A DNA stretch of 32,000 nt from Pseudoalteromonas translucida KMM 520 (GTDB taxonomy: Bacteria > Pseudomonadota > Gammaproteobacteria > Enterobacterales > Alteromonadaceae), in assembly GCF_001465295.1 (NCBI RefSeq), contig NZ_CP011034.1, positions 420,001 to 452,000 of the forward strand. The letters run 5' to 3'. The notes below the pieces were generated by a model. That model made no database searches, had not been told where the DNA came from, and saw only the letters and a list, made by a program, of their open reading frames with translations. Made by a program: the position numbers and the translations under genes. Numbering within the stretch: position 1 is the first letter of the stretch; the number at the start of each line of letters is the position of its first letter. Shown piece after piece: positions 3,856-32,000 of the stretch.

Positions 3856-4140
3856 CTAAATTGCTAAAATACAATTTATCCTTAAAGTTATTGCTCACTT
3901 TTGTGATGTCCTTGCGTTGTCGTATCTCTTTTTCTTGCAAGAGAAAATGCTTTATAAATTGTCCCTATATGAAAATATATTCGTAAATTAAAATTAATTA
4001 CTATAGTTATATCATCCTTATAGTCTTTAATTTTAAAGTATGTGGTGAAAAGGCATATACTTATCTGAATATCATTTTAGGAGAAGTGTTACACCTGCGA
4101 CAATGATTGTATTTGTATTCGAAGATAAATAAAATGTTGA

Positions 4141-5975: not shown

Positions 5976-5978
5976 TAA

Positions 5979-7331: not shown

Positions 7332-8566
7332 TAAATACAATATTTGCATTTTTTATCAAGGTGTTATCCGCAGCAATTAGTTTTCTTGGTAATATGCTAG
7401 TAACAAGGAGTTTGAGCCTTGAAAGTTCCGGGGGGTACTTTATAGCACTTTCGGTAGTTACTTTCTTGACCCCGTTTTGTGCGTTAGGAATGAATAATTA
7501 CATGTTAAGAGAAGTTGCCACTGGTAGTGCTAAGAGAACTGATACATTAATACTAAACTCTATATGTATTTCTTTTGCTTTAGGGGGACTAGGAGCTATA
7601 TTTATCTCTCTCTTTGCTAACCAGATAACAAGTACGCTGTTTAATGTTAGTTCATTAGGAAAAACTTTAAGCTTATTTGCATTTGCTTTACCTTTTTTTG
7701 TTACAAGTATATTAATTAGTCATATATTACAAGGGTTTGGTTATTTAAAAAAAGCACTATTCTTGTCAGGACCTTTATTGTACACCTTTCTTATCGTGTT
7801 AATTTTAACATTTAAGCCAGATAACAATATTGATATAGCATTTTTTTATTTATCGTCATGTATTTGCGTATTTTTAATATCAATTTATCAAATCAAAGGG
7901 AGTCTTAAAGGTACTAAGTTGTTGAGTAAAAGAATAACTAGAGTACTTATTAATAAATCTAAAAACTTAATGGTTGTAGAGGTTTTAGCCGTAATTACAC
8001 TCACTTTAACAACTTTTTATTTGGCGTTCTTTTCGAATAGTAAGGAGGTTGCGATATTTTCAGTAGCAGTAAAAATATCTACTCTAGTGGCTTTTGTTTT
8101 ATTTGCTCTTAATAGGGTTAGTGCACATTCTTTTTCAAAGCTTTACTATGAAAAAAATATAATAAAACTTAGAGAGAACTACTTTAAATTCTTGTTATTT
8201 TCAGTAGTTTTATGCCTGCCTTTTTTATTTTTTCTTTTATTGTACCCATCGTTTTTTCTCAATTTTTTCGGGGGTGAATTTAAACAAGGAAAAGTTGTTT
8301 TACAAATATTAGCTTTATCACAGCTTTTTGTTGTTTGTTCAGGGACATCAATTTATCTCCTGATAATGACAGGTTTGGATGCACATCATCGAAGGAATAT
8401 TCTAGTTAGCTTCATCATTAGTGCTGCTATAGGGGCACCTTTAGTAAATTACTTAGGAGGGACTGGGGCTGCAATAATGATATTGACAAATAACTGTATT
8501 TTATTCTTTTTGACAATATTTTCAGTTTTTAATTCAAAGGTATTAAGTTTTAATGGAAAAGCCTAA
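7307..8566 (+). CDS. wzx: Wzx flippase (MOP/polysaccharide-transporter family). The TTG at 7307 may be replaced by the in-frame ATG at 7325.
   Basis: 419 aa with about 12 TM segments. The N-terminal pattern NTIFAFFIKVLSAAISFLGNMLVTRSL is typical of PST-family flippases. Overlaps the wzy end and the next gene. Confidence 0.7.
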   Translation: MSGEKSMVVNTIFAFFIKVLSAAISFLGNMLVTRSLSLESSGGYFIALSVVTFLTPFCALGMNNYMLREVATGSAKRTDTLILNSICISFALGGLGAIFISLFANQITSTLFNVSSLGKTLSLFAFALPFFVTSILISHILQGFGYLKKALFLSGPLLYTFLIVLILTFKPDNNIDIAFFYLSSCICVFLISIYQIKGSLKGTKLLSKRITRVLINKSKNLMVVEVLAVITLTLTTFYLAFFSNSKEVAIFSVAVKISTLVAFVLFALNRVSAHSFSKLYYEKNIIKLRENYFKFLLFSVVLCLPFLFFLLLYPSFFLNFFGGEFKQGKVVLQILALSQLFVVCSGTSIYLLIMTGLDAHHRRNILVSFIISAAIGAPLVNYLGGTGAAIMILTNNCILFFLTIFSVFNSKVLSFNGKA

Positions 8567-9377
8567 AGTTTCAGTAGTAATTACTACATACAATAGAATT
8601 TTTTTTTTAGAAAGAGCATTAAGATCATTAGAAATTCAAACATTTAAGGATTTTGAAGTTGTCGTATCTGATGATTGCTCTGATGTAGATGTGTATAGTT
8701 ATTTAGAGAATTATAAAAGTAGCAGCAAGCTTACTATACGTTACCGACGAAACAGTGAAAATAAAGGTGCTTGCTACACTCGCAATGAAGGAATAAAAAT
8801 GGCAAAAGGGAAATATATCGCAGGCCTGGACGACGATGATGAGTTTATATCGGCAAGGTTAGAATTACTTTTAAAAGCGTATAATTCCAAGTTGTCTTTT
8901 GTCACGTCAAATACAATTGTAGTTAATAAATCAGGAAGTTCGAACTTATTTAAGTCAGAGAGGCTAATAGATCTAAATGATATGCTATGGGGGAACATAG
9001 CTGGTACGCAAATTTTAACAGAAAAAACAAAAATTTTAGAAATAGGTGGGTTTGATGAGGACCTAACATCAGCACAAGATGCAGATATGTGGTTAAGATT
9101 AATAGAGCGCTTTGGACCGGCATTAAGATTGAAAGACCCACTTTACGTTTTACATACCGAGCATGAACAGGGGCGAATTTCGACATCAAAACATAAAATA
9201 AAAGGGCTTTTACACGCTTATAATAAACATTCTAGTAAAATGAATAAAGGGCAAAAGTCACTACATAAATTTAAATTGGAGCTTTACAAAAAAAATAAAA
9301 AAATGAAACTAGAGGTTCTTAAGTTTTTTTCTTTCCGTTTTATTCCTTACTTGGTTTATCGAAAGCTATTTATTTAA
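8553..9377 (+). CDS. Glycosyltransferase family 2
   Basis: VSVVITTYNRIFFLERALRSLEIQT..VVVSDDCS, DxD region GLDDDDEF and QDADMWLRL. Contains a T10 tract at 8599-8608. Confidence 0.85.
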   Translation: MEKPKVSVVITTYNRIFFLERALRSLEIQTFKDFEVVVSDDCSDVDVYSYLENYKSSSKLTIRYRRNSENKGACYTRNEGIKMAKGKYIAGLDDDDEFISARLELLLKAYNSKLSFVTSNTIVVNKSGSSNLFKSERLIDLNDMLWGNIAGTQILTEKTKILEIGGFDEDLTSAQDADMWLRLIERFGPALRLKDPLYVLHTEHEQGRISTSKHKIKGLLHAYNKHSSKMNKGQKSLHKFKLELYKKNKKMKLEVLKFFSFRFIPYLVYRKLFI

Positions 9378-9394
9378 TTTTATAAGGTTATTTC

Positions 9395-10795
9395 ATGAAT
9401 TTTTGTGTTTTAAAAAATAAGAAAAAAACAACGTTTGAAAATTTTGATATTTTTAAAAACTGGGCTAAAGAACACTTAGGCTTAAAGTTTATTGGTAATG
9501 ACATTGTTTTTTACAGTGCTAGTTTAGCTACTAGACTTTTTATTTTTAAACTAGACGGTGTGCTTTATATTTCAGATTGTCTAGCTAATATGACTGAATA
9601 TTTAAATGGCGTTCAGGAGCTACAATCGAGTATCGACTTCTATAAAAAATTTGGTTTTATATTGCCGCCGTTCACTCAATATACGGGTGTGTATATGACT
9701 GCACCGTTTGTATGTTTTAACATAAGTGAAAAAGAGATAACGTTTAGCTCTAATTACCCTGAAAATAAAAATACTACAAGTTGTAATACGCCTGTTTTAG
9801 TTGATGAATTAGATAGTTTTTTTTCTAAATTAAAAAGTGATGATGAGCTTGAAATATTAGTAAGTGGTGGAATAGACTCTTCAGCTTTATTAGGCTTTGT
9901 TAATGATCGATTTTCTGTATCAAAGTCGATCATGTGTAAAATGTCGAGTCTTCCTAAAGAGGGAGTTATTGCAAATGAACTAAGTAACTCTATTAAAGTC
10001 CCTTTTGAATCTTATAATTTAGATGTGGACTTAAGTGATAGAGCATCTGAATTTATTGACGAAACTGGTGAATATATTTCTGATTCAATTTCTTTAGTTT
10101 TCCCTGAGTTATTTGAAAGAATCAATGACTTTAGTCAGGAAAAAAATATAATTGATGGTCAGGGAGCTGACTCTCTTTTAAACGGATTGCCCCTTGATAA
10201 AATTTATACTCTTTGGGCCAAGATATCTTGGGCAAGATATGTATTTTATCCATTATCTTTGCTTCCTATCTATAAAGATAAAAGCACCCCTATAAAACGA
10301 AAGTTTTATAGGTTCAGTAAAGCTTTAAAATGCCTAACTCAATTAGATTTTAGGCATTCAATTTTGTGCGCTATGACTGAAAATGAAAATATTGATACAG
10401 AATATGAAAAATATTTTTTATCTGAATTAAGTGTACTTTATAGCAAGTATAAAGACTGGCATTTAGTTTTAAGAATGGTTTATTTGTTTAGGGTATTACC
10501 AGCTCGAGAAATGCAAAAGTATTTACTTGCTAAAAAGTATAATATAAATATTGTAGCTCCTTTTTTAGATGATGATTTAATAAGTGCCTACCTTTTTACA
10601 CCTAACAGTGAAACGGTTAAAAGAGGAGTTTATAAATATCCGATTACAAAGCTAGCTCAGAATTATTGGCCTGGTTATTTTGAGACATCTAAGACTTCTC
10701 CATTTCAAATTAATTATCGGTTAGGTCTTAATGATATAAAGTCTTTTTCGATTGAAAGAATCAGAAAAACAATTAATGGAAGTAATATATTATGA
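9395..10795 (+). CDS. Asparagine-synthetase-like PP-loop adenylating enzyme lacking the N-terminal Cys nucleophile (putative uronic-acid amidotransferase/amide ligase)
   Basis: PP-loop motif ILVSGGIDSSALLGF lies about 160 aa from the start. The N-terminus is MNFCVLK, not MCG, and the pre-PP-loop domain is shorter than a class-II GATase domain. Confidence 0.65.
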   Translation: MNFCVLKNKKKTTFENFDIFKNWAKEHLGLKFIGNDIVFYSASLATRLFIFKLDGVLYISDCLANMTEYLNGVQELQSSIDFYKKFGFILPPFTQYTGVYMTAPFVCFNISEKEITFSSNYPENKNTTSCNTPVLVDELDSFFSKLKSDDELEILVSGGIDSSALLGFVNDRFSVSKSIMCKMSSLPKEGVIANELSNSIKVPFESYNLDVDLSDRASEFIDETGEYISDSISLVFPELFERINDFSQEKNIIDGQGADSLLNGLPLDKIYTLWAKISWARYVFYPLSLLPIYKDKSTPIKRKFYRFSKALKCLTQLDFRHSILCAMTENENIDTEYEKYFLSELSVLYSKYKDWHLVLRMVYLFRVLPAREMQKYLLAKKYNINIVAPFLDDDLISAYLFTPNSETVKRGVYKYPITKLAQNYWPGYFETSKTSPFQINYRLGLNDIKSFSIERIRKTINGSNIL

Positions 10796-11937
10796 AACCA
10801 TTGAGACTCTTATTTATAGTAAATGTTGATTGGTTTTTTATTTCTCACCGTTTATCTATAGCGAAAAAAGCTCTTGCAAGTGGTTATGAAGTTACTGTTG
10901 CTTGTAGATTTACTGAGCATAAAGATGAATTAGCATCGATGGGTTTCAATGTCGTGGATATTCCTTTTACTCGAAGCGGTGGTGGTATAGCTTCTGAAGT
11001 AAATACGATTAAAACTATTAAAGCTACGATTAAAGATTTACGGCCTTCATTGATTCATGCCATTACGATTAAGCCAGTTTTGTATTCTGGTATGGCACTT
11101 CATGTTATTAAGCAAGACATTCCATTCGTTGCAGCTATATCAGGGCTTGGCTATGTATTTGCAGCAAGTTCGATACGAGCAAAAGTAACAAGACTTATTG
11201 CATCTGCCTTTTATAAAGTAGCTTTGTCACAAAAATATAAAACAGTTATTTTTCAAAATACTTCTGATGAAAAGATTTTAACCGATGTTGCAAAATTAAA
11301 AGGATCTGACAAAGTCTTAATTAAAGGCTCTGGCGCTGATCTCTCTGTTTATAATTATTATCCTGAAAATATTTGTAACACCATAAAAATAGTTATGGCA
11401 TGCCGCTTACTTAAAGAGAAAGGTGTGTATCAATACATAGACGCTGCCAGAATTATTAAAGAACAGTACCCTAATACTGAGTTTTTACTCGTAGGTACCC
11501 CTGATTTAGAAAACCCAAATACAGTAAAGCAAATTGAGATTGACTCTTGGGTAAACCAAAATTTGATTACTTACCTAGGACACAGAAGTGATATACCAGC
11601 TATATTTGCTGATTCAAATATAGTTTGTTTACCATCGTTTTATGGTGAAGGTGTACCAAAAGTGCTTATTGAAGCTGCTGCCTGTGGAAGAGCTATTGTA
11701 ACAACCGATAATCCTGGTTGCAGGGACGCTATAATTGAAGGTGTGACTGGGTTCACAGTTCCTATTCGTGATTCTAAAGCGCTGGCAATCGCTCTCCAAA
11801 AACTTATAAGTGAACCAGAGTTGAGAGTGTCAATGGGCAATAAAGCAAGGGCTTTTGCTGAAGCTGAGTTTGATGTAGATAGCGTTGTAGCTAAGCACTT
11901 AGATATTTATACTAATTTAATTGGTAAAACTCAATGA
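10792..11937 (+). CDS. Glycosyltransferase family 4 (GT-B, group 1)
   Basis: C-terminal GT1 signature EGVPKVLIEAAACGRAIVTTDNPGCRDAIIEGVTGFTVP. ATGA overlaps at both ends. Confidence 0.85.
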   Translation: MKPLRLLFIVNVDWFFISHRLSIAKKALASGYEVTVACRFTEHKDELASMGFNVVDIPFTRSGGGIASEVNTIKTIKATIKDLRPSLIHAITIKPVLYSGMALHVIKQDIPFVAAISGLGYVFAASSIRAKVTRLIASAFYKVALSQKYKTVIFQNTSDEKILTDVAKLKGSDKVLIKGSGADLSVYNYYPENICNTIKIVMACRLLKEKGVYQYIDAARIIKEQYPNTEFLLVGTPDLENPNTVKQIEIDSWVNQNLITYLGHRSDIPAIFADSNIVCLPSFYGEGVPKVLIEAAACGRAIVTTDNPGCRDAIIEGVTGFTVPIRDSKALAIALQKLISEPELRVSMGNKARAFAEAEFDVDSVVAKHLDIYTNLIGKTQ

Positions 11938-18788: not shown

Positions 18789-19814
18789 TTGTTTATTTCT
18801 GTTCAATATTTACGTGCGATAGCAGCGTTTATGGTTCTATTAACTCATTCTGCATTTAAACTCAAATCAAACGGCTCAACTTTGTTAGATTGGTATAATA
18901 TAGGAGGCTATGGTGTAGATCTCTTCTTCATTATTTCAGGCTTTATCATGTGTCTTACTATAGAAAAGAAAAGGGATAGCTTTATTTCATTTATGAAGAA
19001 AAGAATTGTAAGAATTATTCCCTTATACTGGGTGTTGACGTCAGTTGCGTTTGTAGTATTTTTATTATCTCCTTCTAGTGTCAACTCTTCAGGAGGTGAA
19101 ACTTCTATAATAGCTTCTTACTTCTTAATTCCAACTACCAGTAAATATTTAATAAATAATGGTTGGACTTTGAGCTTTGAATTTTATTTTTACTTAATAT
19201 TTTCATTATGCTTTGTTTTAGGGAGTTTTCAAAAGCAAGCAACTTCTTTTACTCTTGTACTTCTGGTCTTAATTGGGTCGCTTTATAGCTTTCAGACTCC
19301 TCTGCTAATTTTTTTGACAAGCCCTCTATTATTAGAGTTCGTACTAGGTATTATAGCTTTTAAGCTAATCAGAAATTACAAGCCGAGTATTCCTACCTGT
19401 ACCTTTTTTATACTTCTAGGGGTTGCAGGGCTTATACAGGCTAATAGTCTTTGGAGGTGGGATACCGCATTAGGTAGTAGTTTAAATGGTGGTTTACCTA
19501 TGTTTTTTATATTTATAGGGCTAGTTTTCATGGAAAGAAAAATAAAAATGAATAAATATCTTTATGAACTAGGTATGTCGTCGTATTCGCTGTATTTACT
19601 TCACCCATTCACTCTTGCCTTTGTTACTATTATTTTTAAAAAGCTAGAGCTAATTCATTATAACCTCATCTACCTTGCAACTATGCTGATAAGTAGTTTA
19701 ATTATGGGGTGGCTTTGTTACTACTACCTAGAAATGAAGTTGGATAAGCTGATTCGTAACAGAACTCAAAAAATTAAGATTAAATTAAATACAAAATTAA
19801 AGGACTATCTGTGA
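18789..19814 (+). CDS. Acyltransferase family 3 (polysaccharide O-acetyltransferase), integral membrane
   Basis: [15 protein letters not shown] and [13 protein letters not shown] motifs, about 10 TM segments, TTG start, and a 4-nt overlap with galU. Confidence 0.8.
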
Positions 19815-20692
19815 AAGCTGTTATCCCTGTTGCCGGTTTAGGCACGCGTATGTTACCCATGACCAAAGCCATTCCTAAAGAAATGCTCCCGTTGGTTGAT
19901 AAGCCGCTTATTCAATACATAGTAAATGAGTGTGTTGCTGCTGGTATTAAAGAAATTGTATTAGTAACGCATAGCTCTAAAAATGCCATTGAAAACCATT
20001 TTGATACCAGCTTTGAACTAGAAGCTACATTAGAAAAACGCGTTAAGCGTGTTTTACTTGATGAAGTACGTTCTATTTGCCCACCCGATGTAACCATAAT
20101 GCATGTACGTCAAGGCGAAGCTAAAGGCTTAGGCCATGCTGTGCTGTGTGCAAAGCCTATTATTGGTGATGACGATTTTGTAGTGGTATTACCCGATGTA
20201 ATCCTCGATGCTTATACCGCAAATCAAAAAACTGAAAATTTAGCAGCAATGATTGCCCGCTTTGACCAAACGCAAGCCAGCCAAATTATGCTAGAGCCCG
20301 TAGCACTTGAAGACGTAAGTAAATACGGTATTGCCGACATTAGTGGTGTGCAGTTAAATCCGGGTGAAAGTGCTGCAATTAAAACCATGGTTGAAAAGCC
20401 TGCTGTGGACGTTGCACCATCAAACCTAGCAGTTGTTGGTCGTTATGTGTTAAGTAAAGATATTTGGCCGTTACTGGCTAAAACACCCGTTGGCGCGGGT
20501 GGCGAAATACAGCTAACTGATGCGATTGATGCGTTAATGGAAAGCGAAACGGTAGAAGCATTTCACATGAGCGGCCGTTCACATGACTGTGGCGATAAAC
20601 TCGGTTACTTAAAAGCCATTGTTGAATACAGCCTACGCCATGAAACGTTAGGTGAAGAATTTACAGAGCATTTAAAAGCGCTAGTAAATTAG
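19811..20692 (+). CDS. galU: UTP--glucose-1-phosphate uridylyltransferase
   Basis: [53 protein letters not shown] and VEKP signatures. 293 aa; GTG start. Confidence 0.92.
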
Positions 20693-20863: not shown

Positions 20864-21734
20864 TTACTGCGTTGGAACAGCAAAAACCTCAGACTCATCG
20901 TTATCTAAATCAATAAACGCAATAGGCTGGTCACTCTGTATTGTGTTGGCGTAATTTTTAATAAACGGCACAACATATAACTGATTAAACCTATCGTCAC
21001 ACATAAACTCAGTAGGGTTTGTGCTTGTCAGCTTATACTCTTCTGTAATACTGTGCTGTAATAATAGCGGATTGTTTTCAGGCTTTTTAAGCCCACATTC
21101 TAATTGGCCTAATGCGCTATTCCCCCAGTTGCCGCTAAACGGTATAGGCGCTGAAACAAGCTCAATGTTCACATCGTTAGCAATAATGTTATGCTTGCGA
21201 CAATAATCGAGCTGACGGTTTATTACAGACTGCGTTAATTCATTTATCGTATACGTTTGTGTGTCGGCCCAATCAAAACGACTTATCCCAAACTTATAAA
21301 TAATCTCTCTCGTATTCGCAGTTGCAACAACGCCGCTCCATACATAAAAAATAATATGCGTGTGCGTAAACGGGCTATATGCATCCTCGCTTTTTCGCTG
21401 TTTTTCACATATCGGCAGTAACAGCGTAGGCTGCTCAACTCCCGGGTAATTTGAAAAATTCCTTACATAGTCAGTTTCCCCATTTGTGTATGTAATGCGA
21501 GTATGAATACGTTGCTTGCCTGTACTTTCTTTTTCACCACGTTCTACCTGTACTGACTTTATCGAGAGAGCTTTTAGCTTATTTGAAATTCGGTATAAAT
21601 CGTTAATAATTTTTATATCATTGCATACCATTTCACATACCCTGGCACCGTTTCGTCTTTGTCGTAATGCAGACAGCGTTGTGCGTGCTATGAAGTAATT
21701 GGCAATAACAATATCAATGATGTACTTATCTTTT
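20864..21734 (-). pseudogene. C-terminal fragment of a 551-aa protein of unknown function, split by IS66 (the six-frame ORF 20864..21763 borrows its start from inside the IS)
   Basis: Joins in frame to 24140..24932 once the IS and one TSD copy are removed (..NNFKQKD|KYIIDIVIANY..). 793 + 863 nt = 552 codons. Confidence 0.8.
21727..21734. repeat. Left copy of the 8-bp target-site duplication TATCTTTT of the IS66-family element
   Basis: An identical octamer lies at 24140-24147, directly outside the terminal repeats. Confidence 0.9.
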
Positions 21735-21814
21735 GTGAGCGTCCGGCAAATTGCGTCTGACAAATTAATCTCAACTTAAGTAAGTTACAACCAAACAATT
21801 ATTTGGAGTAACTT

Positions 21815-22114
21815 ATGAGAATTATGCGCAGCCCAGAGCAATGGCAAACCATCATCCATGAACAACAATCAAGTGGTTTAACCATCATTGATTATTGCCG
21901 GCAACATCAATTATCAATGACTAGCTTTTATGCGGTAAGAAAGAAACTCGGCCTATCATCGAATAATTTCGTTCGCGCCAAAATTACACAGCAAGTCGAA
22001 ATAGTTGATGAACAACCATCCATCACGTTAACTGTTGGCAAGGCAAACGTTAGTTTGCCAGCCACAACCTCTGCAACGTATTTAAGCCAGTTACTACGCG
22101 AGTTTGTTCAATGA
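21815..22114 (+). CDS. tnpA: IS66-family accessory protein TnpA (small HTH protein)
   Basis: 99 aa, the first ORF of the element. ATGA overlap with tnpB. Confidence 0.8.
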   Translation: MRIMRSPEQWQTIIHEQQSSGLTIIDYCRQHQLSMTSFYAVRKKLGLSSNNFVRAKITQQVEIVDEQPSITLTVGKANVSLPATTSATYLSQLLREFVQ

Positions 22115-22458
22115 AAATGTTTGTTGAGCCGTCAGAGGTTTTTCTGCATCGGGATTTTGTCGACTTTCGAAAAAGTATTAATGGCTTAGTGAGTATTGTT
22201 GAAGATGAGCTTGTTCGCGATGCCTATACCGGTACGTTGTTTGTATTTTGTAACAAGGCCAAAGATAAGCTGAAAATTCTATACTGGGATAAAACAGGGT
22301 TCGCGCTTTGGTATAAACGACTTGAAAAGCAAAAATTCAAATGGCCAAGTAAACTATCGAGCCAGGAATTTGAATTAACCTATCAACAACTGGATTGGTT
22401 GTTATCTGGATATGACGTGCTTGGCCATGAACCGCTGCACTATCAGTCACCGATCTAA
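22111..22458 (+). CDS. tnpB: IS66-family accessory protein TnpB (IS66 Orf2-like)
   Basis: 115 aa with the VDFRKSINGL..LFVFCNKAKDKLKILYWDKTGFALWYKRLEKQKF pattern typical of IS66 Orf2. Confidence 0.88.
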   Translation: MKMFVEPSEVFLHRDFVDFRKSINGLVSIVEDELVRDAYTGTLFVFCNKAKDKLKILYWDKTGFALWYKRLEKQKFKWPSKLSSQEFELTYQQLDWLLSGYDVLGHEPLHYQSPI

Positions 22459-22554
22459 CTAGATCTTTTATCAGTCAACGATCGTGTACGCAAGTCCTTA
22501 TTCTATTTGCGTTACAAAGCAGAATCATCTGTCTGTTCTTGCTAAACTCGATGG

Positions 22555-24117
22555 ATGAAAATTGATACTAACTCACTCCCTGACGACCCAGAACAACTCA
22601 AGCAAATGTTGCTTGAGTTGCAGGCTGAAACTACCCAAGAGTTAGCGAAAAAAGATAAAATCATCAGTGAACAAGCCATTCAAATTAATCAGTTTATTGA
22701 ACGCTATGAAATTGCCAAGCGTAAACAGTTTGGTAAAAGCTCCGAGCAACTCCCGGGGGCGGGGGAAACCTTCAATGAAGCGGAAGAAATCATTGATGAG
22801 GCCGATAAAACGTTATTAGCTGCGGCTGATAGTCACAGTAAGGTCACAATTAAAAACAAACCGACGCGCAAGCCACTGCCAAAAGAATTACCTCGAAAAG
22901 TGGTGACAATTGATTTGTCCATTGATGAAAAAGTGTGTGATTGTTGCCAAGGTAAGCTGCATAAAATTGGTGAAGCTCGTAGTGAAAAACTTGAGTTTGT
23001 TCCTGCGTACATCAAAGTGATAGAGACAGTTCGACCGAAATATGCCTGTAAAAGGTGTGAGCAAACTGGCACAGAAAATTCTATAAAAGTTGCACCTGTT
23101 CCAGCAACCCCCATTCCTAAAGGCATTGCCACCAGTAGTTTGCTGAGTCAAATCATCAGCGCCAAATATCAATATGGGTTGCCGCTATATAGGCAAGAAA
23201 AAATGTTCAATGAGTATGGTATTGAGCTGAGTCGTAAAACCATGTCAGATTGGATAATACGGTGTAGTGAATTACTGATGCCATTAGTTAACGAGCTAAA
23301 AGCAGCATTGCTTAGTCAAGCGGTGCTCCATGCCGACGAAACGCCCTTAAAGGTGATTAAGGCCGATAATAGCAGCAGTTACATGTGGGTGTATTGTTGT
23401 GGTAGCGATTCGGTGGCCGCCAATAGTTTGCCAAATATTATCCTCTATGATTATCACAACTCTCGTGCCGCAGCTTGTGTAGTTGATTACCTTGGTGACT
23501 ATGACGGTTACCTGCAAGTCGATGGTTATGCAGCGTACGGAAAAACAGATGCAATATTGGCAGGTTGTATGGCGCATGCACGTCGAAAATTCATTGATGC
23601 GAAAACGGTGCAAACGAAAAACAAAACCGGCAAAGCCGATGTTGCCTTAAGTCTTATTAGAAAACTCTACGGCATTGAGGCAAGCTTAAAAGACAAAACG
23701 GCCGCAGAAACGTATCAAGCACGGCAGGAAAGTTCAAAACCCATCATCGATAAACTTCACCATTGGATTATCGAAAATAAAGATAAAGTGCCACCGAAAA
23801 GTAAACTTGGTGAAGCGATTACGTATTGGTGTAACCAAGAACATAAGCTCATCACCTATTTAAAAGATGGTCGCATAAATATAGATAACAATCGCGCTGA
23901 GCGGGCTGTGAAACCGTTTGTGATTGGCAGAAAAAACTGGTTATTCTCCAATACCGCGCGGGGTGCAACGGCTAGCGCCGTGCTCTATAGTATTATTGAA
24001 ACCGCGAAAGCGAACGGACTGTTGGTCGACAACTATTTGCAAACCTGCCTAGATGAGCTTGCTAAAAAGCCTGAAAGTGTAGAGCACTTGCTACCTTGGA
24101 ATGTTAATCAAGGCTAG
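22555..24117 (+). CDS. tnpC: IS66-family DDE transposase TnpC
   Basis: 520 aa. N-terminal leucine-zipper region, zinc finger CDCCQGKLHKIG..YACKRCEQ, DDE core (HADETPLKV, LQVDGYAAY, NNRAERAVKPFVIGRKNWLF). Confidence 0.92.
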   Translation: MKIDTNSLPDDPEQLKQMLLELQAETTQELAKKDKIISEQAIQINQFIERYEIAKRKQFGKSSEQLPGAGETFNEAEEIIDEADKTLLAAADSHSKVTIKNKPTRKPLPKELPRKVVTIDLSIDEKVCDCCQGKLHKIGEARSEKLEFVPAYIKVIETVRPKYACKRCEQTGTENSIKVAPVPATPIPKGIATSSLLSQIISAKYQYGLPLYRQEKMFNEYGIELSRKTMSDWIIRCSELLMPLVNELKAALLSQAVLHADETPLKVIKADNSSSYMWVYCCGSDSVAANSLPNIILYDYHNSRAAACVVDYLGDYDGYLQVDGYAAYGKTDAILAGCMAHARRKFIDAKTVQTKNKTGKADVALSLIRKLYGIEASLKDKTAAETYQARQESSKPIIDKLHHWIIENKDKVPPKSKLGEAITYWCNQEHKLITYLKDGRINIDNNRAERAVKPFVIGRKNWLFSNTARGATASAVLYSIIETAKANGLLVDNYLQTCLDELAKKPESVEHLLPWNVNQG

Positions 24118-24139
24118 ACGCATTTGCTCAGACGCTTAC

Positions 24140-24147
24140 TATCTTTT
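24140..24147. repeat. Right copy of the 8-bp target-site duplication TATCTTTT
   Basis: Identical to 21727-21734. Confidence 0.9.
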
Positions 24148-24932
24148 TGTTTAAAGTTATTTTTTAAGTCGGGACGTTGATGCTCTGGAAAATAAGCTGA
24201 TGTGTATACTTTTATGTCGGTGACACTCGCTGCGTCACTAAATCGTTGAAGCTCTTGGTACACACTTGCTTTAAATGTCTCTACTTTTTCTGGTGTGTTC
24301 ATGTCTTCAAGGTCATAAGACACCGCCTGTATACTTTTAGCATAATAGAGTAATTTACTGCGCGTCTCGGTTATACGCTTTTCAACTTTATTTCTTGCCT
24401 CTAAAAATTCAGCGCTCAGGGTATAGCGATAGTCGCGCTTTGAGTAAATGTAATTAACCTCAACATTTAACGATAATAAGTTTTTGTCAGTGGCTCTTCT
24501 ATCGGTGAGTATGTTATCCAACTCGCGTTGTAACTCTGTTTTAATTTGTTTTGCACCGAGTGTTTTTTGCTTTTTAAAGGCACACGCGCATAAAGTGACC
24601 TTGCATTCTTTAGAAATATACTGAGATAAATAGCTCAACATGCGCCGACGCGGCTTTGATGGCTTTGTGGTATACCCTAAAAATTGTGTAATGTGTTTTT
24701 GACACGCCCGCTTATGGCTAGAGGCAGAGTAAGGAATGGTGCTTTCGTACTGTTTAAACAAACCAATAATAGGTTGAAATATCATTTTGTTAGTAAATTC
24801 ATCATACCATTGGCTTTTGTTGAGCTGCTTTAATGGCATACTCATGAGCTTATCGAACGCATCTTGAGCCACTTCTAGCTCTTCAGGTAATGGGTATGGC
24901 ATTGTATTGTTTGTGCATTGTTTGCAAATCAT
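24140..24932 (-). pseudogene. N-terminal fragment of the 551-aa unknown protein split by IS66 (the six-frame ORF 24114..24932 reads into the IS end)
   Basis: See 20864..21734. The Cys-rich N-terminus is MICKQCTNN. I recognise no family. Confidence 0.8.
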
Positions 24933-25063
24933 AAATAACCTCTTTTTAGGTTAGCATTAAATTAAATGCGCATAGGCGCGATATAAGTATTAAATGTTAT
25001 AGGTGTGGCATGCGCTTGTTTGGCGTTAACCAACTAAACGCATAGCCATTAAATGTGTGTGCT

Positions 25064-26230
25064 TTATGCAATCCCGCGTTCAATCATCATTTCATTAAAT
25101 GCAAAACCATCCTGCCGTGAGGCATTAGCAACATACGGCGCGTACACGTCAAATAATAAACGCGTGTCGCTGTGGCCTAACATGTGCGAAATGTACAGTG
25201 GGTTTTCATGCGCAGCGATATGCAGAACGGCTGCGGTGTGGCGTGTTTCGTAAGGGCGGCGGCGTGCAAGCCCCGCTTTTTGGAGTATGGGATACCAAAG
25301 CTGCTTACTTATAAAGTGGGTATCCAGCGGTTTATTTTTATGCGTAAATACAAATTCACTGTTTGCTTGTTCTTGTAAGCGCTTAAACAATGTAAATAAT
25401 GTATCGCACATTTTTAAGTCGCGGCGCGACTTAGGTGTTTTTACATCACCCAACTCACCATTAACCCAATTGTGTCGAATACGAATGAGCCGATGATTAA
25501 AGTCGATATCTTCCCAGCGAAGACCATGTATTTCACAGCTTCGCATACCAGTCCAAAAACGCACTGTAAAATAATCGCGCCACTCATCGGATGTGCATTC
25601 TAAAAAGCGTTGTACTTCATCGGCAATAAGTGGCAATGAGTTAGCGCGTTCTTCTTTTAGGGTTTTATAGCGGCGTAATGGGTAGGGAAAGCTGTGCTCT
25701 TCTGCGGCTAAACTTAGTATGGCAACAAACGGCCAAAGAATGCCATTAATACGCTTATTAGAAAGCTTACGGGCCCCTTTGGTATCGCAAACCATTAAGC
25801 TTTCTCGAAAATAATCCACATTAGCCAGCTTGATCTCGTTTACTAATATATTGCCAAATTCAGGGATGAGGTAACGGTCGAGCGTATTACGTACCACGCT
25901 TTGATAACTGCTTTTCCATTTTGCTTTTTGACGATCGAACCATTCATTCGCGTAATCGTTAAAGAATGGATAAAGACGATCGGGGTGTTTTTCGCGTTGT
26001 AGCGCCTCAAACTTAGCGACTTTTTTACTTTCAGGAAAATAATCACGATACTGAAACGTATCTAAGTCAATTTCAGCATTAATTTTTTTAAGTGTTGCGT
26101 TGGCTTTTTTAAGGTTTACAGGGGTCGCCATGAGCTTAGTGCCTTCACGAAAGCGCTGCCCATAAATGTGTAAGTCAAATTGGATACGCCCATTGGGGCG
26201 AATGCGAATGTGAGCCATAATGGCCTCCAT
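25064..26230 (-). CDS. int: Tyrosine-type site-specific integrase with N-terminal arm-binding (DUF3596-like) domain. The true start is probably the ATG at 26218.
   Basis: AHIRIRPNGRIQFDLHIYGQRFREGT arm-domain pattern. Catalytic residues: R in FWTGMRSCEI, K in KTPKSRRDL, R-H in YETRHTAA, and H plus Y in MLGHSDTRLLFDVYAPY. GGAGG lies 5 nt upstream of the ATG at 26218. Confidence 0.9.
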   Translation of the reverse strand: MEAIMAHIRIRPNGRIQFDLHIYGQRFREGTKLMATPVNLKKANATLKKINAEIDLDTFQYRDYFPESKKVAKFEALQREKHPDRLYPFFNDYANEWFDRQKAKWKSSYQSVVRNTLDRYLIPEFGNILVNEIKLANVDYFRESLMVCDTKGARKLSNKRINGILWPFVAILSLAAEEHSFPYPLRRYKTLKEERANSLPLIADEVQRFLECTSDEWRDYFTVRFWTGMRSCEIHGLRWEDIDFNHRLIRIRHNWVNGELGDVKTPKSRRDLKMCDTLFTLFKRLQEQANSEFVFTHKNKPLDTHFISKQLWYPILQKAGLARRRPYETRHTAAVLHIAAHENPLYISHMLGHSDTRLLFDVYAPYVANASRQDGFAFNEMMIERGIA

Positions 26231-26689: not shown

Positions 26690-27991
26690 TCAAACATCAA
26701 GCTCCCCTTGTGCTCCTTGAGGTTTGTGTTCATTTTTATCTGTATCGGATGGTTGTTCAAGTTGTGATGGCTTATAATCCTTGTGTAACGCTAAAACTTC
26801 TTTAAGCCGACTGTCATCCCTTTCAACAGAGAGTACACTGAGTGGCACAGTACTTTTTAAACATTTAAAAATCTCTAGAAGTAGTTGTCCAACCCGGTTT
26901 TCAGTGACCTGAAAGAACATTTCTTCTATTTCTTTTGCACTTTTAAGTTTTAGATCTTTAAAGTCTTTTACTGTAAAGCGAAATACGTACTCCTTTGCTT
27001 TTTCAATCTTATCAATACTAAAAATAGTTAAAGGTCGTGTGAAATTCTCTCCTTCGTTATTTAGGTCCCCATCGTCACCTATATTGTTGATAGATACTAG
27101 GCTTTCACTAATGTATAAGTGTCCAGAATTTATTGATTTATAGGATTTTTTACAATTTAGCACTTCCATATTCAATGCGAAAAAGTCTATTTTTCCTTTA
27201 ATAATGACATTTGCTAGCATTTTCTTTTTCTTTCTAAACTCCTCAATACCCGCTAACGGGCATGTGATAGATATATCAGAGCCTTGCAAAAGGAGATCAT
27301 TACCTCGCTGTAAAAAGTGAATGCATCGGTCTGTGTTTTGGTCGAGCATCTGTTTTATGTCCTCTACCGCTAATTCATTTAATATTAAAGGGACTGTTAA
27401 TTTAATGTTTTCATCTACTGTTACCTGTGACACATGACCGTTTATTTGAATAAAAATAGCTTTATTTACTGGGTCAAATTCAATAAAGTCAAAGCTGTCA
27501 TATTTACTTGCTAAAAAAACAACCATTTCAAAAGTAGCCTTTGATATTGGATCCCCTTCAATTTTTTGATGCTCATCTAGGTATTTTAAATGAGTTTTTT
27601 GGCCCTCAGTGCATTTATAGCTTTTAAAGCCCGGGAGCTGTGGATGGTTTTTACTCGTTCTAATAGTATGATCAGTAACACCTAATTTAATGAGCCCCTT
27701 TTCTTGCGTAATAGATAAAACTGGGCTTTTTAAGAGATATAAAGGCAGCTGAATCAAAAATTCGGCATTGACGGAAAAAGAACAATCTTTGTGCTGTCCT
27801 GAGATTTTGTTAAGGTTTAAGTTACATGTATACCAGTACGGTTCTTCCCCTGCTATAAGGGTTAGTTGTTTTGTCTTTTTATCAATGAAACCTGTCACAT
27901 TTTTACATTTGTTCTTATTTTTTGAACTAGATATGGATTTAGTGAATCCTTTTAACTTACGTATTTCTTTGTCTGTAAAGTAAGCGTCCAT
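26690..27991 (-). CDS. Unknown 433-aa protein with apparent three-domain DnaN (beta sliding clamp)-like pattern and an acidic/disordered C-terminal tail. Third gene of the recombinase operon.
   Basis: Strong SD (GGAGG at 28001-27997, 5-nt spacer) overlapping the upstream stop codon. By-eye alignment to E. coli DnaN in all three domains is given in the findings. No family assignment was possible without a search. Confidence 0.45.
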   Translation of the reverse strand: MDAYFTDKEIRKLKGFTKSISSSKNKNKCKNVTGFIDKKTKQLTLIAGEEPYWYTCNLNLNKISGQHKDCSFSVNAEFLIQLPLYLLKSPVLSITQEKGLIKLGVTDHTIRTSKNHPQLPGFKSYKCTEGQKTHLKYLDEHQKIEGDPISKATFEMVVFLASKYDSFDFIEFDPVNKAIFIQINGHVSQVTVDENIKLTVPLILNELAVEDIKQMLDQNTDRCIHFLQRGNDLLLQGSDISITCPLAGIEEFRKKKKMLANVIIKGKIDFFALNMEVLNCKKSYKSINSGHLYISESLVSINNIGDDGDLNNEGENFTRPLTIFSIDKIEKAKEYVFRFTVKDFKDLKLKSAKEIEEMFFQVTENRVGQLLLEIFKCLKSTVPLSVLSVERDDSRLKEVLALHKDYKPSQLEQPSDTDKNEHKPQGAQGELDV

Positions 27992-28001
27992 GACGACCTC
28001 C

Positions 28002-29798
28002 CTAATGTTTAATTAATTTAATAAACTGTTCTACATATTCAAGTGTATGGATAGATATTTTGCTCTTTGGCTTTAGGTAAATAGTCAATGAACTTGGCCC
28101 TTTTTGCTGACGTAAAACGTTGATATGTTTGTATTCACTTTTCTTTGCATAACGCTTTTTAACCATTTCTAACGGTCGCTTACTGTCTACTTTTCTATTT
28201 ATGTGAAGCTCAAATTCACATCGCACCCATGCCCACTCTGTATGTCTAAATACAGTATTAAACGCAGACGCACCTTTGGTGGTACAGGCAATATTTAAAC
28301 GTAATGCGTGTTTGTGTTTACACACTGTTATGTTGGGGAATGATTTATATGCTGTTAGATATTTATTATTGATAGGCTGAGAGCGGTGACGACACCCACA
28401 TTCCCAAATAGCACTGATAGACTCAAAGTTAATTATTGCTTCTTCACCATTAGGAACAGGGTTTATTAGCTTATCAAAAAGAAAGTTAGTCAGTGTTAAC
28501 TGGCTCTTTTCAAGCGTACTCAACCACTTTTCTTCCAAGTATGTATTGCTTAGTGTGTCAGTTATATGCTCCTTTTGTGCGGCTTGGCTTAAATTATCTA
28601 TCTGTAACACATGTACCCTTAGTGCGTGTTCAGTTACTGTTATTGATTGACATCGTTTTTCAGCAAGTGTTTGCTGATCATAATCAGGAATAATATGGCT
28701 TAGTAGTCTAGATAAATCATTAGATGACGCACTTAGCCCCATCAGGTAGCGTAACGCAGAGTGTGAAAACTGCTTGTGAGTATGAGGATTATGATATTTA
28801 CTTATTATTGGTAAAAGCCAATCGATATCATGTAGGTAAGACCACCGTGTAGTTGCATAAAAAATATGGCCAATTTGTTTTCCCATATTATCTAAAAAAG
28901 CAGCACTATTAACCTCAATTGCCTCTCTGCCTTTGAACCAATAATCTAATCGAACGGCCACTGACTTTTCTGATAGCACTTCCTGCTCAAGAGGTGTTTC
29001 CCCGCGCAAATTGTCGGGCGTATAGCTAACGCAATGTAACATTTGCAGCATAAATATATGCACACCGCTGTGACGTAAATGGTGAAAGTTAAAGTGAATA
29101 CCAAATAATATTCGTAATGCCCTCGATACGGGTACTAAATAGGATATAGCGCGAGAGGATAGTGTCTCAAGATCATGACCTATAAGTGGTAAATCTTGAT
29201 TACTATGTTTTTTAATATCAAGCAGGGTATAAAAAAAATAGCGGTATCGTGTGGGTATCGTTGTATAAACCATACGGGAGGAGCCACTTTTTGTTTTACC
29301 TTCACGGGTGTTGGTAATATTGAGTGTTAAAAGCCCCGTCTCACTTTTAAATTGAATATCTTTAATGCGTAATCTAAGTACTTCACCACGGCGCAACATA
29401 GCGTAAAAACCGAGCAAAGCAGCAACAATACAAAATAAAATGTGTAATGTGGGTTTTGTTGCTCCATTATCGATAAGTGCATTTATAAGCGAGTCACATT
29501 TATCTACACATAAGCGGGCTGCGCTAACAGAAGGGGGAATTATTGGTGTGCTAAAATTAGATAAATCCAGAGCTTCGGTTTTCTCTTGCCAGCTTAAAAA
29601 CGCTAAAAATTTATAAAAGGCTTTTTTTACTGCATCAGACTTAATTGAAACAAAAATAACCTGTGCCCACTCATTAATCGACTCCTCAATGAGTGCATCA
29701 GTTAAAGTCAGAGGAAAGGGAGTTAGTATCTTTGTGAGTGACGTATATGTTCTAATAGTTCCCTTCTTAAGGGCTGCTTTTTTAGGGCCGTATATGTT
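28002..29798 (-). pseudogene. C-terminal two-thirds of a ~950-aa giant tyrosine recombinase (core-binding region, catalytic domain, ~250-aa C-terminal extension). It is separated from its N-terminal part by a frameshifting 47-bp duplication.
   Basis: I translated this frame codon by codon and it is open from 29798 to 28002, with no start codon before the TTG at 29417. Catalytic set: R in MLRRGEVLRL, K in EGKTKSGSS, HHLRHSG, and GH..TTRWSYLH. Confidence 0.8.
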
Positions 29799-30901
29799 CT
29801 AATAGTTCCCTTCTTAAGGGCTGCTTTTTTAGGGCCGCCATTAATTATCCAATCTTTTGCGAAGTCAAACATCAAGCGTGGCAAAATATTATCAGTATCC
29901 CAGGGAGGGGGTTCTATTTCATTTACCTCATTTATGTCGACAGCTCTAAGTAACTTTCCATGTTGCCATGGGTTCTTAGGCCTATGTGTTGATAATGGCG
30001 TAAACAACGTCGTATCCTGATTATTCTTGTAAATATCAGCTAATTTTTGTTTGCAGACATCATCGTCAGTTATTAGCCCCACATGACGTTCAGGTTGAGC
30101 TAAATCTTTAATAAAAACAGGATTTATTTCATACTGGTTATACCAATGAATTTGAAATAGTCTCGACCATTGTGTTTTTGCTATGTGTTGAATGCCATTT
30201 GTATCCAGCCAGTCCTTAAGCTCTTTTACTAAAGACGCTGTTGTGGTTAACTTAGCGCGTTGTGCATAGTAATCACGCAGTAAGTTTTGATTTAAGAGTG
30301 ATAAAGAGTAATGAGTAGGAAAATGGGGGATATCTGTATTTTTATACTGGTGTTTAACGCGCAGTCTAGGATAAGGGCATTCATTAGTTATCGATTGGGA
30401 GTCATTTAAAATAGTTGATATATCGCCAAGCGATAAAGGCGCTATCTCAAAGCCAATCATAATCACCATAAAAGCAGTGCCGAGCTCACGCTGCTCATAA
30501 AAATTTTCGAGGTCTATTTGGTAGCATGAGAACACACGATGTGATAGCCCAGCTTCGTTTGCTATACTTTCAAACCACTCATGATCTGCGTCAGTAAGTA
30601 AGGATTTAACAAGTTCAGAGCCATCCTGAGACTCAGGCAACTGCCACTGGCATGCATAACGTAAATAATAAAGAATGTTTTGCAAAGCTTTAGTGTAGTG
30701 TACTCGCTTACCTGTTGGCACAGTTGCTATTATTCTTTGTGCTTTCTTTATTTCTTTTTCTTTTAATGAACGTGTTTGCTGCTGCATTACCGGCCATTTA
30801 GTTAAAAGTTCAGCAATAACTTGTGTATCAGCACACGGCTGTGCCGTTTTACTTAGGTAGTCTTGAATATCTGTTGCATGTATCAATGCGGGGTTAGACA
30901 T
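29723..30901 (-). pseudogene. N-terminal third of the giant tyrosine recombinase (unknown N-terminal domain), terminated prematurely after the 47-bp duplication
   Basis: The peptide GPKKAALKKGTIRTYT is encoded twice, at the end of this ORF and at the head of the downstream open frame. Deleting one 47-bp copy fuses both into 2853 nt = 950 aa. The ATG at 30901 overlaps the upstream gene by 8 nt. Confidence 0.8.
29743..29836. repeat. Perfect 2 x 47-bp tandem duplication (GTATATGTTCTAATAGTTCCCTTCTTAAGGGCTGCTTTTTTAGGGCC)
   Basis: Copy 1 is 29743-29789 and copy 2 is 29790-29836, with no mismatches. 47 is not a multiple of 3. Confidence 0.95.
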
Positions 30902-32000
30902 AATGTAACTCCTTAACGCCGATATGTTGGTCTAGCCCGTTTAAGTAAGCTTTTAGAACGCCAATATTTTTTGGGAACATAATGTCGCTACCTAAATGTT
31001 CTCCTGTATTTTCATGGCCCATTAGGCGATCAATATCTTGAGCCGTAAGTGGGGTAAGACTAATAATTGTATGAGCACATTGAGCAAAATAGTGCCTGAG
31101 CTGATAAGGAACAACACCAGCCCAGTGTTTGTTCATAAATACACGTAATGCACGAGCACTTAATGGTGTTGGAGTTTCTGACTTATCATAAATGTACCAA
31201 AGCTCAGGTAAATCATCATGTAAGCTTAGTTGGGAATGAAGTGATGCTTTTAGCTCAGTGTAATGCGTAATTTCTCTAAGCAGGTAATCACTTAAAATAA
31301 CTTGCCTTAAGTGGCCTTTATCTTTGACAAACGTAACGTGAGTGAATGAAAAATAATGAGAGAGCAAACTAATACTGTGAGTTGGCCTTACTCCTGTTAA
31401 TACAATAAACAGCAATGCTATGCGAAAGCTGACAGCATTAAAGTAGGCTAACCACTGCGCACGTGAAGCTCTACTGGTTGGTTTTAGTTGTTTAACATAA
31501 CTATCAATACGATTAAAAAAGTCAGTGACGTCTTTATCTTTAGGAACACGGCGACTACCGAGCATAATTGCAGGCGCTGCAACATGATCACTCTTTCCTT
31601 TTGTTTTAATGATTTTATATTGACCCATACTCCCTTTATGTTTCAGATCTGGATCAATATTTTCGTAAGGCGTATCTCTTAGGCGCTCAGTAATAAGGTT
31701 AACCGTTTTACTTTCGAGATGAACTTTGAAATACGAATGCAAATTCTCTTTTCGTATGAATTCAAATAAAAAGCCGATATATCTGTGATGGGCATCAAAA
31801 ATTTTAAATCTCAGACGGTCGCTGCTGAGCCGTTGATAGCATATAGCGCTAGTATGGTGTGCTTTAACTGATTTTACTAAATGCTTTCTTGGGATAGGGG
31901 TCAAGGTTTCGTCTGCGCGAGCACATAACGATATATAACGATAAAAGGTATTTTTTCTCGCCGGTTTAAAAGTTTTGAGTACTAGTGGCCTCGTCCAGTG
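30894..32000 (-). CDS. Tyrosine-recombinase-like protein, first visible gene of the operon. Partial: the frame stays open to the window edge, so the TTG at 31904 is probably not the real start.
   Basis: R in LTGVRPTHSISL, K-hairpin in VKDKGHLRQVIL, LRHYFAQ and LMGHENTGEH. I translated upstream of 31904 and found no stop through position 32000 (..HWTRPLVLKTFKPARKNTFYRYISLCARADET-LTPIPRK..). Confidence 0.7.
   Translation of the reverse strand, partial: HWTRPLVLKTFKPARKNTFYRYISLCARADETLTPIPRKHLVKSVKAHHTSAICYQRLSSDRLRFKIFDAHHRYIGFLFEFIRKENLHSYFKVHLESKTVNLITERLRDTPYENIDPDLKHKGSMGQYKIIKTKGKSDHVAAPAIMLGSRRVPKDKDVTDFFNRIDSYVKQLKPTSRASRAQWLAYFNAVSFRIALLFIVLTGVRPTHSISLLSHYFSFTHVTFVKDKGHLRQVILSDYLLREITHYTELKASLHSQLSLHDDLPELWYIYDKSETPTPLSARALRVFMNKHWAGVVPYQLRHYFAQCAHTIISLTPLTAQDIDRLMGHENTGEHLGSDIMFPKNIGVLKAYLNGLDQHIGVKELHYV

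Follow-up and report, generated by a model that had tools for sequence, protein, structure and literature searches.

What is a protein resembling a replication sliding clamp doing in an operon of tyrosine recombinases? The question is raised by a 32,000-nucleotide stretch of the Pseudoalteromonas translucida KMM 520 genome (NZ_CP011034.1, positions 420,001 to 452,000), which we refer to as the window and in whose own numbering all coordinates are given. It carries a genomic island with a core of genes that we label A, B, C, and Int, preceded at other loci by a further gene, U. Sliding clamps are hubs of replication and repair that mobile elements exploit from outside via short peptides. Here, it seems, the element itself encodes a protein with the clamp fold, the product of gene C (protein C), fused to a peptide of the clamp-binding type and located in a tyrosine-recombinase operon.

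Predicted Structure of Protein C

An exhaustive HMMER search yielded 31 cluster representatives of 280-500 amino acids having 18-29% identity to protein C, and a word-indexed homolog search with the family alignment contributed only one extra protein. The structure of protein C was modeled with AlphaFold2 without templates, using an alignment of 28 family members. The model had a mean predicted local distance difference test (pLDDT) score of 84.3 and a predicted template modeling (pTM) score of 0.69, and all five models had pLDDT scores of 82-84. Assignment of secondary structure with DSSP revealed six consecutive β-α-β-β-β units, corresponding to the three domains of a sliding clamp (Table 1). 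An extra helix is present at the junction of domains I and II (residues 132-141), and residues 410-433 at the C terminus have pLDDT scores below 50.

A search of the PDB with Foldseek returned bacterial DnaN proteins as all of the top 50 matches, with E values of 8e-13 to 4e-11 over about 415 aligned columns. Sequence identity to the DnaN chains in these alignments was 10-14%. A corresponding search of BFVD placed phage β clamps at the top with an E value of 1e-11. On the evidence of the model, protein C very likely adopts the three-domain architecture of bacterial sliding clamps, and it is predicted to be a highly diverged homolog of the β sliding clamp.

These results bear on a previous sequence-only reading of the window, which had proposed a three-domain DnaN-like protein from a by-eye comparison with E. 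coli DnaN. Both structure prediction and the Foldseek searches bear out this proposal, all three clamp domains being present in the model. The order and spacing of the sequence blocks that had been matched to DnaN agree with the predicted secondary structure except at the end of the domain I block, where the last strand spans residues 121-129 and not 109-114. A Lys-rich insert reported near the N terminus is indeed present at residues 19-31, but it forms the α1-β2 loop and is only about three residues longer than in the relatives of protein C. Similarly, the acidic tail of about 45 residues exists as a C-terminal extension but consists of a helix (residues 393-405) and a disordered, mildly acidic tail of 28 residues.

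Sequence Comparison with DnaN

Sequence methods gave a different outcome from the structural searches. The only Pfam match to protein C was at chance level and was not to a DnaN family, the DnaN families of Pfam matched none of the 28 members of the gene C family, and searches of NCBIfam, PADLOC, and PHROGs with protein C produced no match. PDB sequence searches with protein C alone or with the family profile returned only noise, BLASTP against E. coli DnaN gave nothing beyond fragments with E values of 3 or more, and tblastn of protein C found no match in plasmids or phages. Nor did the profile searches, which had been suggested as a check on the sequence-only reading, place protein C confidently in any unrelated family.

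Protein C was also compared with DnaN by hhalign. The E. coli DnaN query used was 100% identical over 366 residues to a database record. No significant match was obtained with the single DnaN sequence. With an alignment of 11 DnaN sequences (E. coli plus ten phage clamps) the best local match had an E value of 0.0067 and a probability of 5.7%, which is below any threshold. This best alignment pairs residues 200-317 of protein C with residues 191-301 of DnaN, and its register is the structural register. The lower-ranked alignments are shifted by one repeat unit, as expected because the fold is internally repeated. The similarity to DnaN seen by eye is therefore not above chance as sequence, although the blocks matched in domains II and III do lie in the hhalign register.

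The Protein C Family and Its C-terminal Tail

The orphan family to which protein C belongs is found in Pseudoalteromonas, Cognaticolwellia, Shewanella, Psychromonas, Vibrio, and Photobacterium, and its closest members (77-93% identity) come from Pseudoalteromonas-type assemblies. Domain II is the best conserved part of the protein, with a family mean identity of 0.45 as against 0.36 in domains I and III, and conservation peaks in this domain, in the linker between domains II and III, and in the last strand. Specifically, the hot spots are P-F-x-x-I-E (residues 166-171), Q182, S-L-A-G-x-x-x-F (residues 245-252, with F252 invariant), and L-P-x-x-S-I-x-x-E (residues 383-390). On the mapping that we have assumed, the equivalents of these hot spots in E. 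coli β are the elements that build the peptide-binding cleft.

Beyond residue 405 the linker is variable, and the extreme C terminus is conserved, with Q428, D/E430, and L431 retained at 71-78% across the family. A Q-x-x-[LM]-[FYWIV] sequence occurs within the last 16 residues in 15 of 27 full-length representatives, examples being QLGLF, QQDMF, QLDLY, and QPDLF. Two more representatives end in QGELDV, namely the lineage of the window and P0010, which are only 29% identical. In total, 17 of the 27 have a motif of the clamp-binding type (Q..[LM][FYWIV] or Q..L.[LVFIM]) in their last 16 residues, whereas composition-matched shuffles gave it at a frequency of 2.8% and windows taken elsewhere in these proteins at 4.2%. 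The Vibrio and Photobacterium tails read QGDLFTFDDDD and QQDMIGFDDI.

The bacterial clamp-binding motif is QL[SD]LF or QxxLxL. The tails of the family resemble the clamp-binding motifs of E. coli Pol II (QLGLF) and Pol III α (QADMF). Judged from these sequences, the protein C family has a motif of the clamp-binding type that lies in a predicted disordered terminus and is conserved among relatives.

Gene C and the U-A-B-C-Int Module

Gene C begins 10 nt after gene B. The gene B stop codon (TAG) is followed by GGAGG, which has the form of a canonical ribosome-binding site, and then by 5 nt and the gene C ATG; upstream, the stop of gene A and the start of gene B overlap by 8 nt. Because the ratio of nonsynonymous to synonymous substitution rates (dN/dS) against two orthologs is 0.46-0.48, gene C is a genuine coding gene that is evolving quickly under relaxed purifying selection. 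The fraction of G and C (GC) is 0.337 at positions 27001-28000 and 0.438 at positions 25001-26000, confirming that gene C is AT-rich, as had been noted. A scan for promoters and terminators around gene C was uninformative.

Related loci were gathered via protein C, via an alignment of gene B, and via gene B homologs. The block order U, A, B, C, Int is kept in all loci fetched, from Pseudoalteromonas, Cognaticolwellia, seven Shewanella species, three Psychromonas, Vibrio, and Photobacterium. The encoded proteins have similar sizes across the loci: about 160 residues for U, 515-567 for A, 925-1047 for B, 415-524 for C, and 386-393 for Int. A P4-type integrase with an Arm-DNA-bind_2 domain was found after gene C in 13 loci, usually 0.2-0.4 kb past it. 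Protein C is thus bound by its operon to a catalytic tyrosine recombinase as an obligate partner. U-A-B-C-Int is an undescribed island module.

The recombinase assignment of gene B comes from the AlphaFold2 model of its fragment in the window (pLDDT 85), for which Foldseek matched IntI, XerH, Cre, Tn1549 Int, and λ Int. Residues R136/R137, K170, H240, R242, H311, and Y321 are invariant in 49 sequences. Gene B is accordingly predicted to encode a tyrosine recombinase with the core-binding and catalytic fold and the R-K-H-R-H-Y set. Gene A keeps the motifs T-G-x-R-P, D-K-G-R, Y-x-L-R-H, and M-G-H, and one of its orthologs has a weak Phage_integrase match, but in all 14 sequences Asp stands at the position of the nucleophile, with Phe after it, and neither residue varies. 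Profiles of gene A and gene B had no match among PDB sequences. Gene B and the P4-type Int are probably the catalysts of the module.

Gene U lies outside the window and was seen in another locus (L003, positions 1067-1603) and in its orthologs. Its product has a conserved C-terminal K-K-Q-L-A...S-P-S-A-I-R sequence with the look of a helix-turn-helix and a conserved internal Q-x-L-L-D-L peptide, and it matched no family.

The proteins of the module differ in how far they have diverged between genera, identity being 68-71% for Int, 31-40% for A and B, 27-33% for U, and 17-29% for C. Int has a dN/dS of 0.04 and a GC of 0.44, as against 0.47 and 0.34 for gene C, and the synonymous divergence (dS) between the window and locus L003 is 0.72 for Int and 0.25 for gene C. 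This contrast indicates that the block is mosaic in tempo or history.

Polymerase, primase, and clamp-loader genes were not recognized among the module genes scanned. Gene C lacks the setting of a replication gene, with neither a dnaA-dnaN-recF arrangement nor a polymerase or clamp loader nearby, and sits between a tyrosine recombinase and an integrase. The sequence-only reading was right in placing it in a mobile-element operon and in denying that it is the housekeeping dnaN: the recombinase operon in which gene C comes third is conserved and lies on a genomic island.

Proposed Role of Protein C

The operon context makes it probable, if not strongly so, that protein C is an accessory of the recombinase operon. 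We infer that it is not a replication clamp but a dedicated subunit of the multi-recombinase module U, A, B, C, Int. Considering the evidence as a whole, the explanation that we prefer, at a probability of about 0.45, is that protein C is a clamp-fold accessory subunit that links the recombinases with the clamp or replisome of the host. In this mechanism the clamp-fold body would dock on the recombination complex of A and B, and the C-terminal Q-x-D-L-F-type peptide (QGELDV in the window) would enter the hydrophobic cleft of the host β clamp. The recombinases would thereby be placed or activated at clamp-loaded DNA, that is, at replication forks or primer ends. The purpose could be target choice, as for TnsE of Tn7, or the priming of copy-out replication, as has been proposed for the strand-biased circularizing elements (SE). 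The step in which the tail of protein C binds the host β clamp is tentative, and we would not rely on it when taken by itself.

Several observations weigh against this explanation. As a caveat on the fold, protein C failed every test of membership in the DnaN (DNA_pol3_beta) families by sequence or profile. Its TM-scores with DnaN are only 0.44-0.56, with root mean square deviations of 7-9 Å, so that the placement of the domains is either unlike that in the DnaN chains or uncertain, and ring geometry is not fixed by the model. No Q-type motif is found in 10 of the 27 representatives, which have only an acidic-aromatic end (DEYGF, LDLxxMF), and the QGELDV of the window fits no more than the looser hexapeptide pattern; what the tail binds could consequently be a protein of the element and not the conserved host clamp. 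In addition, a conserved Gly-Phe that follows the tail motif falls outside the classical clamp-binding motif. As for the element itself, the recombination activity of the module is predicted from its genes, gene B is a pseudogene in the window (intact orthologs encode 925-1047 residues), and at a minimal 8.1-kb copy of the module (locus L021) nothing beyond AT-rich chance matches turned up when direct and inverted repeats were sought at the ends.

If the partner of the tail does belong to the element, the tail may dock into the cleft of another protein C protomer or onto A or B, and protein C would be an internal scaffold for the synaptic complex. In favor of such an arrangement, the tail motif differs by lineage (QxDLFxF, QGELDV, LDLxxMF, DEYGF), A, B, and C evolve fast together (17-40% identity) while Int stays at 68-71%, and the conservation hot spot falls in the region equivalent to the clamp cleft. 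Nevertheless, AlphaFold2 leaves the tail undocked with pLDDT below 50, and the commonest tails literally match the bacterial clamp-binding consensus. Known clamp-binding motifs are also diverse, so variation among the tails cannot discriminate between the two types of partner. We regard a purely internal scaffold as unlikely.

Somewhat less likely still is that protein C is a working sliding clamp in its own right, forming a head-to-tail dimeric ring around DNA that tethers B (or A), the tail being regulatory. The DnaN three-domain architecture extends over the full length of protein C, and gene C is tightly coupled to gene B in the operon. The charge of the channel may point in the other direction: in a crude count made without coordinates, the six would-be channel helices have a net charge of -2 in the window protein and a mean of 0.0 (sd 3.5) in the family, whereas those of E. 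coli DnaN sum to +4. Likewise, no clamp-loader gene was recognized among the genes scanned in and near the module.

A clamp fold combined with a clamp-binding-type peptide could also mark protein C as a mimic or decoy, sequestering the clamp-binding proteins of host or phage or poisoning the host clamp, in which case A-B-C would be an anti-phage or addiction system. The rapid evolution of gene C (dN/dS 0.47) and the toxin-antitoxin and abortive-infection cargo on the islands (Zeta toxin, RelBE, CcdAB, AbiE, HipA, ParE) are compatible with this. However, there was no PADLOC match, gene C is strictly tied in its operon to a recombinase with an intact catalytic set, and its place at the end of the island, beside the integrase, is fixed, the cargo starting directly behind the Int stop codon in the manner of the GInt elements (PMC5385486); a decoy function is improbable.

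Finally, the suspicion that the clamp fold is a modeling artifact or a convergent β-α-β repeat of unrelated function, to which the failure of every sequence method to reach significance (hhalign probability 5.7%) and the moderate TM-scores lend some substance, is very improbable because all five template-free models agree (pLDDT 82-84), the six units match the clamp topology exactly, two independent structure libraries are topped by clamps only in full-length alignments, and the best sub-threshold sequence alignment is in the structural register.

Island Setting and State of the Window Copy

The features of the window are listed in Table 1. Comparison of related genomes shows a highly identical unit of about 8 kb that begins a short way upstream of U or A and ends at the Int stop codon. 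Identity between related islands (loci L013, L014, and L016) ends 3-75 nt past the Int stop, where different cargo starts. The variable cargo includes Zeta toxin, RelBE, and AbiE and, in several loci, a protein of about 560 residues (protein F). In Photobacterium leiognathi the five module genes stand alone between an epimerase gene and galU, and it is at this copy that the search for terminal repeats came up empty. Attachment at a tRNA gene was considered and rejected, there being no tRNA gene near any locus.

A surface-polysaccharide cluster ends no more than a few kb from the module in nearly every locus, and at least five of the six genera show this position at the cluster edge. It was noted in the window (positions 1-20692) and at loci L003, L008, L012, L013, L015, L016, L020, L021, and L022. 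The neighboring polysaccharide genes comprise pgm/pmm, galU, ugd, a wecA-type transferase, and O-antigen ligase, mostly downstream of Int and on the opposite strand. This location at the polysaccharide edge suggests either a conserved attachment site there or a role of the module in exchanging these loci. The center of the polysaccharide cluster in the window (positions 4001-11000) has a GC of 0.29-0.31, against about 0.40 in its flanks. Such low GC is typical of O-antigen or capsule genes that are exchanged by horizontal transfer.

In the window copy, gene C and Int are intact and genes B and F are split. The copy is decaying, as gene B is frameshifted, and judging by its sequence the element is probably immobile. 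Examples of intact copies are those of Pseudoalteromonas nigrifaciens (GCA_052109775.1) and Shewanella frigidimarina KCTC 23109. The open reading frames (ORFs) that interrupt gene F are ones that we take, from their translations, to belong to the IS66 family of insertion sequences (IS). Gene F begins MIC..C and follows Int in the window and in Shewanella basaltis, S. algicola, and S. frigidimarina. Codons for "KD" are duplicated at both of its break points, suggesting a target-site duplication.

Table 1. Coordinates of module, island, and flanking features in the window. Secondary structure elements are given as strands (E) and helices (H) with residue numbers; pairs of units are separated by a slash.
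Feature	Position	Strand	Description	Basis
Gene C, 433-aa protein with predicted clamp fold	26690..27991	-	Stop codon at 26690-26692	ORF, AlphaFold2 model, Foldseek
Protein C domain I (aa 1-130)	27602..27991	-	E2-4 H7-20 E31-59 / E70-75 H76-86 E91-129	DSSP of model
Protein C domain II and II-III linker (aa 131-255)	27227..27601	-	E147-150 H151-162 E169-191 / E202-204 H206-218 E223-245	
Protein C domain III (aa 256-392)	26816..27226	-	E261-268 H270-282 E289-327 / E335-340 H352-357 E359-391	
Protein C extra C-terminal helix (aa 393-405) and disordered tail (aa 406-433)	26693..26815	-	Length and sequence vary across the family	Model
Terminal peptide QGELDV	26693..26710	-	Sits where the family has the Q-x-D-L-F-x-F clamp-binding-type motif	
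Gene B, C-terminal part	28002..29798	-	Open frame of 598 aa; predicted tyrosine-recombinase core R-K-H-R-H-Y and extra C-terminal α/β domain	
Gene B, N-terminal part	29723..30901	-	392 aa; separated from the remainder by a frameshift	
Gene A, cut by window end	30894..32000	-	Recombinase-like; R, K, LRH, and GH present, canonical nucleophile Tyr absent	
Int, P4-type tyrosine integrase	25064..26230	-	388 aa; last gene of the block	Pfam Arm-DNA-bind_2, Phage_int_M, Phage_integrase
Perfect 47-bp tandem duplication	29742..29837	.	Frameshifts gene B	Tandem Repeats Finder (period 47, 2.0 copies, 100% match); all-frame translation
Gene F, N-terminal half	24114..24932	-	About 560 aa when intact; 47% identity to residues 21-295 of the L015 protein	
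Gene F, C-terminal half	20864..21763	-	61% identity to residues 289-579 of the L015 protein	
Three presumed IS66-family ORFs	21815..24117	+	99, 115, and 520 aa; inserted in gene F	ORF list
galU-type nucleotidyltransferase gene	19811..20692	+	Last polysaccharide-cluster gene; host-side island flank	Pfam NTP_transferase in the orthologous flank of locus L003; DNA match between window and L003

Comparison with Known Systems

The nearest structural counterparts of protein C are bacterial DnaN (E. coli β; PDB 1jql and 3q4k) and the phage clamps, with which it shares the division into three domains of two β-α-β-β-β units each and, at the junction of domains II and III, a conserved G-x-x-x-F-type motif. 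Protein C differs from DnaN in being 67 residues longer, with the extra helices at residues 132-141 and at the C terminus and with the disordered tail. By the crude charge count its would-be channel helices are not consistently basic, its gene belongs to a recombinase operon instead of dnaA-dnaN-recF, and protein C itself carries a clamp-binding-type peptide. If the fold assignment holds, the clamp superfold gains an orphan family that is invisible to Pfam.

Some DnaN-like sequences in phage records were encountered during this comparison. A stretch of MG065686.1, a record named Campylobacter phage A18a, matches all 366 codons of E. coli dnaN at 100% identity and is probably host or contaminant DNA. 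The Burkholderia and Ralstonia phage records NC_005342.2 and NC_047804.1 contain partial DnaN-like matches of about 120-160 residues (approximately E. coli DnaN residues 121-283) under genes annotated as RusA-like Holliday junction resolvase.

The transposases of several IS families and TnsE of Tn7 bind the β clamp (PMC4549789, PMC5371812). Like protein C, they are mobile-element proteins with a short Q-x-x-L-F-type peptide (PMC4549789, PMC5371812). Unlike protein C, they lack a clamp fold and serve DDE elements as transposases or target selectors, whereas protein C stands beside tyrosine recombinases and its binding to the clamp is conjectural. Literature searches aimed at clamp-fold proteins in integrative elements yielded no description of one. 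The directionality factors of serine integrases were considered as a precedent for a clamp in such a role and rejected, their folds being SSB-like and nuclease-like.

In gene content the module is closest to GInt (ginABCD), SE (intA-tfp-intB-srap), and Tn554 (tnpABC), in all of which several tyrosine-recombinase genes lie together. It was set apart from them by gene order and sizes as described for these elements. On that basis an identification as SE or GInt was rejected, the order and sizes of the module genes (U 160, A 520, B 950, C 430, and Int 388 aa) being different. Tn554 was rejected since gene A is without the nucleophile Tyr and protein C is not TnpC-like. GinD, Srap, and TnpC are described or implied to be small auxiliary proteins, and a clamp-like fold has not been reported for them; nor is any of the three systems reported to encode a protein with the clamp fold. 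When gene B was searched by tblastn against a plasmid collection, in which the presence of SE plasmids was unconfirmed, a single weak, unannotated match was found in a Shewanella putrefaciens plasmid.

The resemblances to these elements are nonetheless extensive. Like the module, GInt and SE combine one ordinary and one large catalytic recombinase with a recombinase-fold protein without catalytic residues and a small auxiliary protein (PMC5385486, PMC10214605), and they too have Gammaproteobacteria as hosts, including Vibrionales and Alteromonadales (PMC5385486, PMC10214605). Gene A resembles Tfp of SE or GinC of GInt in having a recombinase fold without the nucleophile Tyr. In GInt, as here, the core operon lies at the island end, and the stop codon of its final gene, ginD in the case of GInt, is directly followed by cargo (PMC5385486).

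The island family, which belongs to marine Gammaproteobacteria, marks the border of capsule and O-antigen loci in Vibrio, Photobacterium, Shewanella, Psychromonas, and Pseudoalteromonas. It is conceivable, although we hold the idea to be doubtful, that U-A-B-C-Int represents a new class of multi-recombinase integrative islands whose own clamp-fold subunit captures the host clamp or replisome, that strand exchange is thereby coupled to replication (by copy-out or fork-targeted insertion), and that the islands may drive the exchange of these loci.

No empty donor site is left behind by GInt- and SE-like elements, in which host factors are suspected to take part. For SE, replication-dependent copy-out has been proposed with the host factors left unidentified (PMC10214605). 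If the link between protein C and the host clamp is true, it would offer a handle on how GInt- and SE-like elements engage replication.

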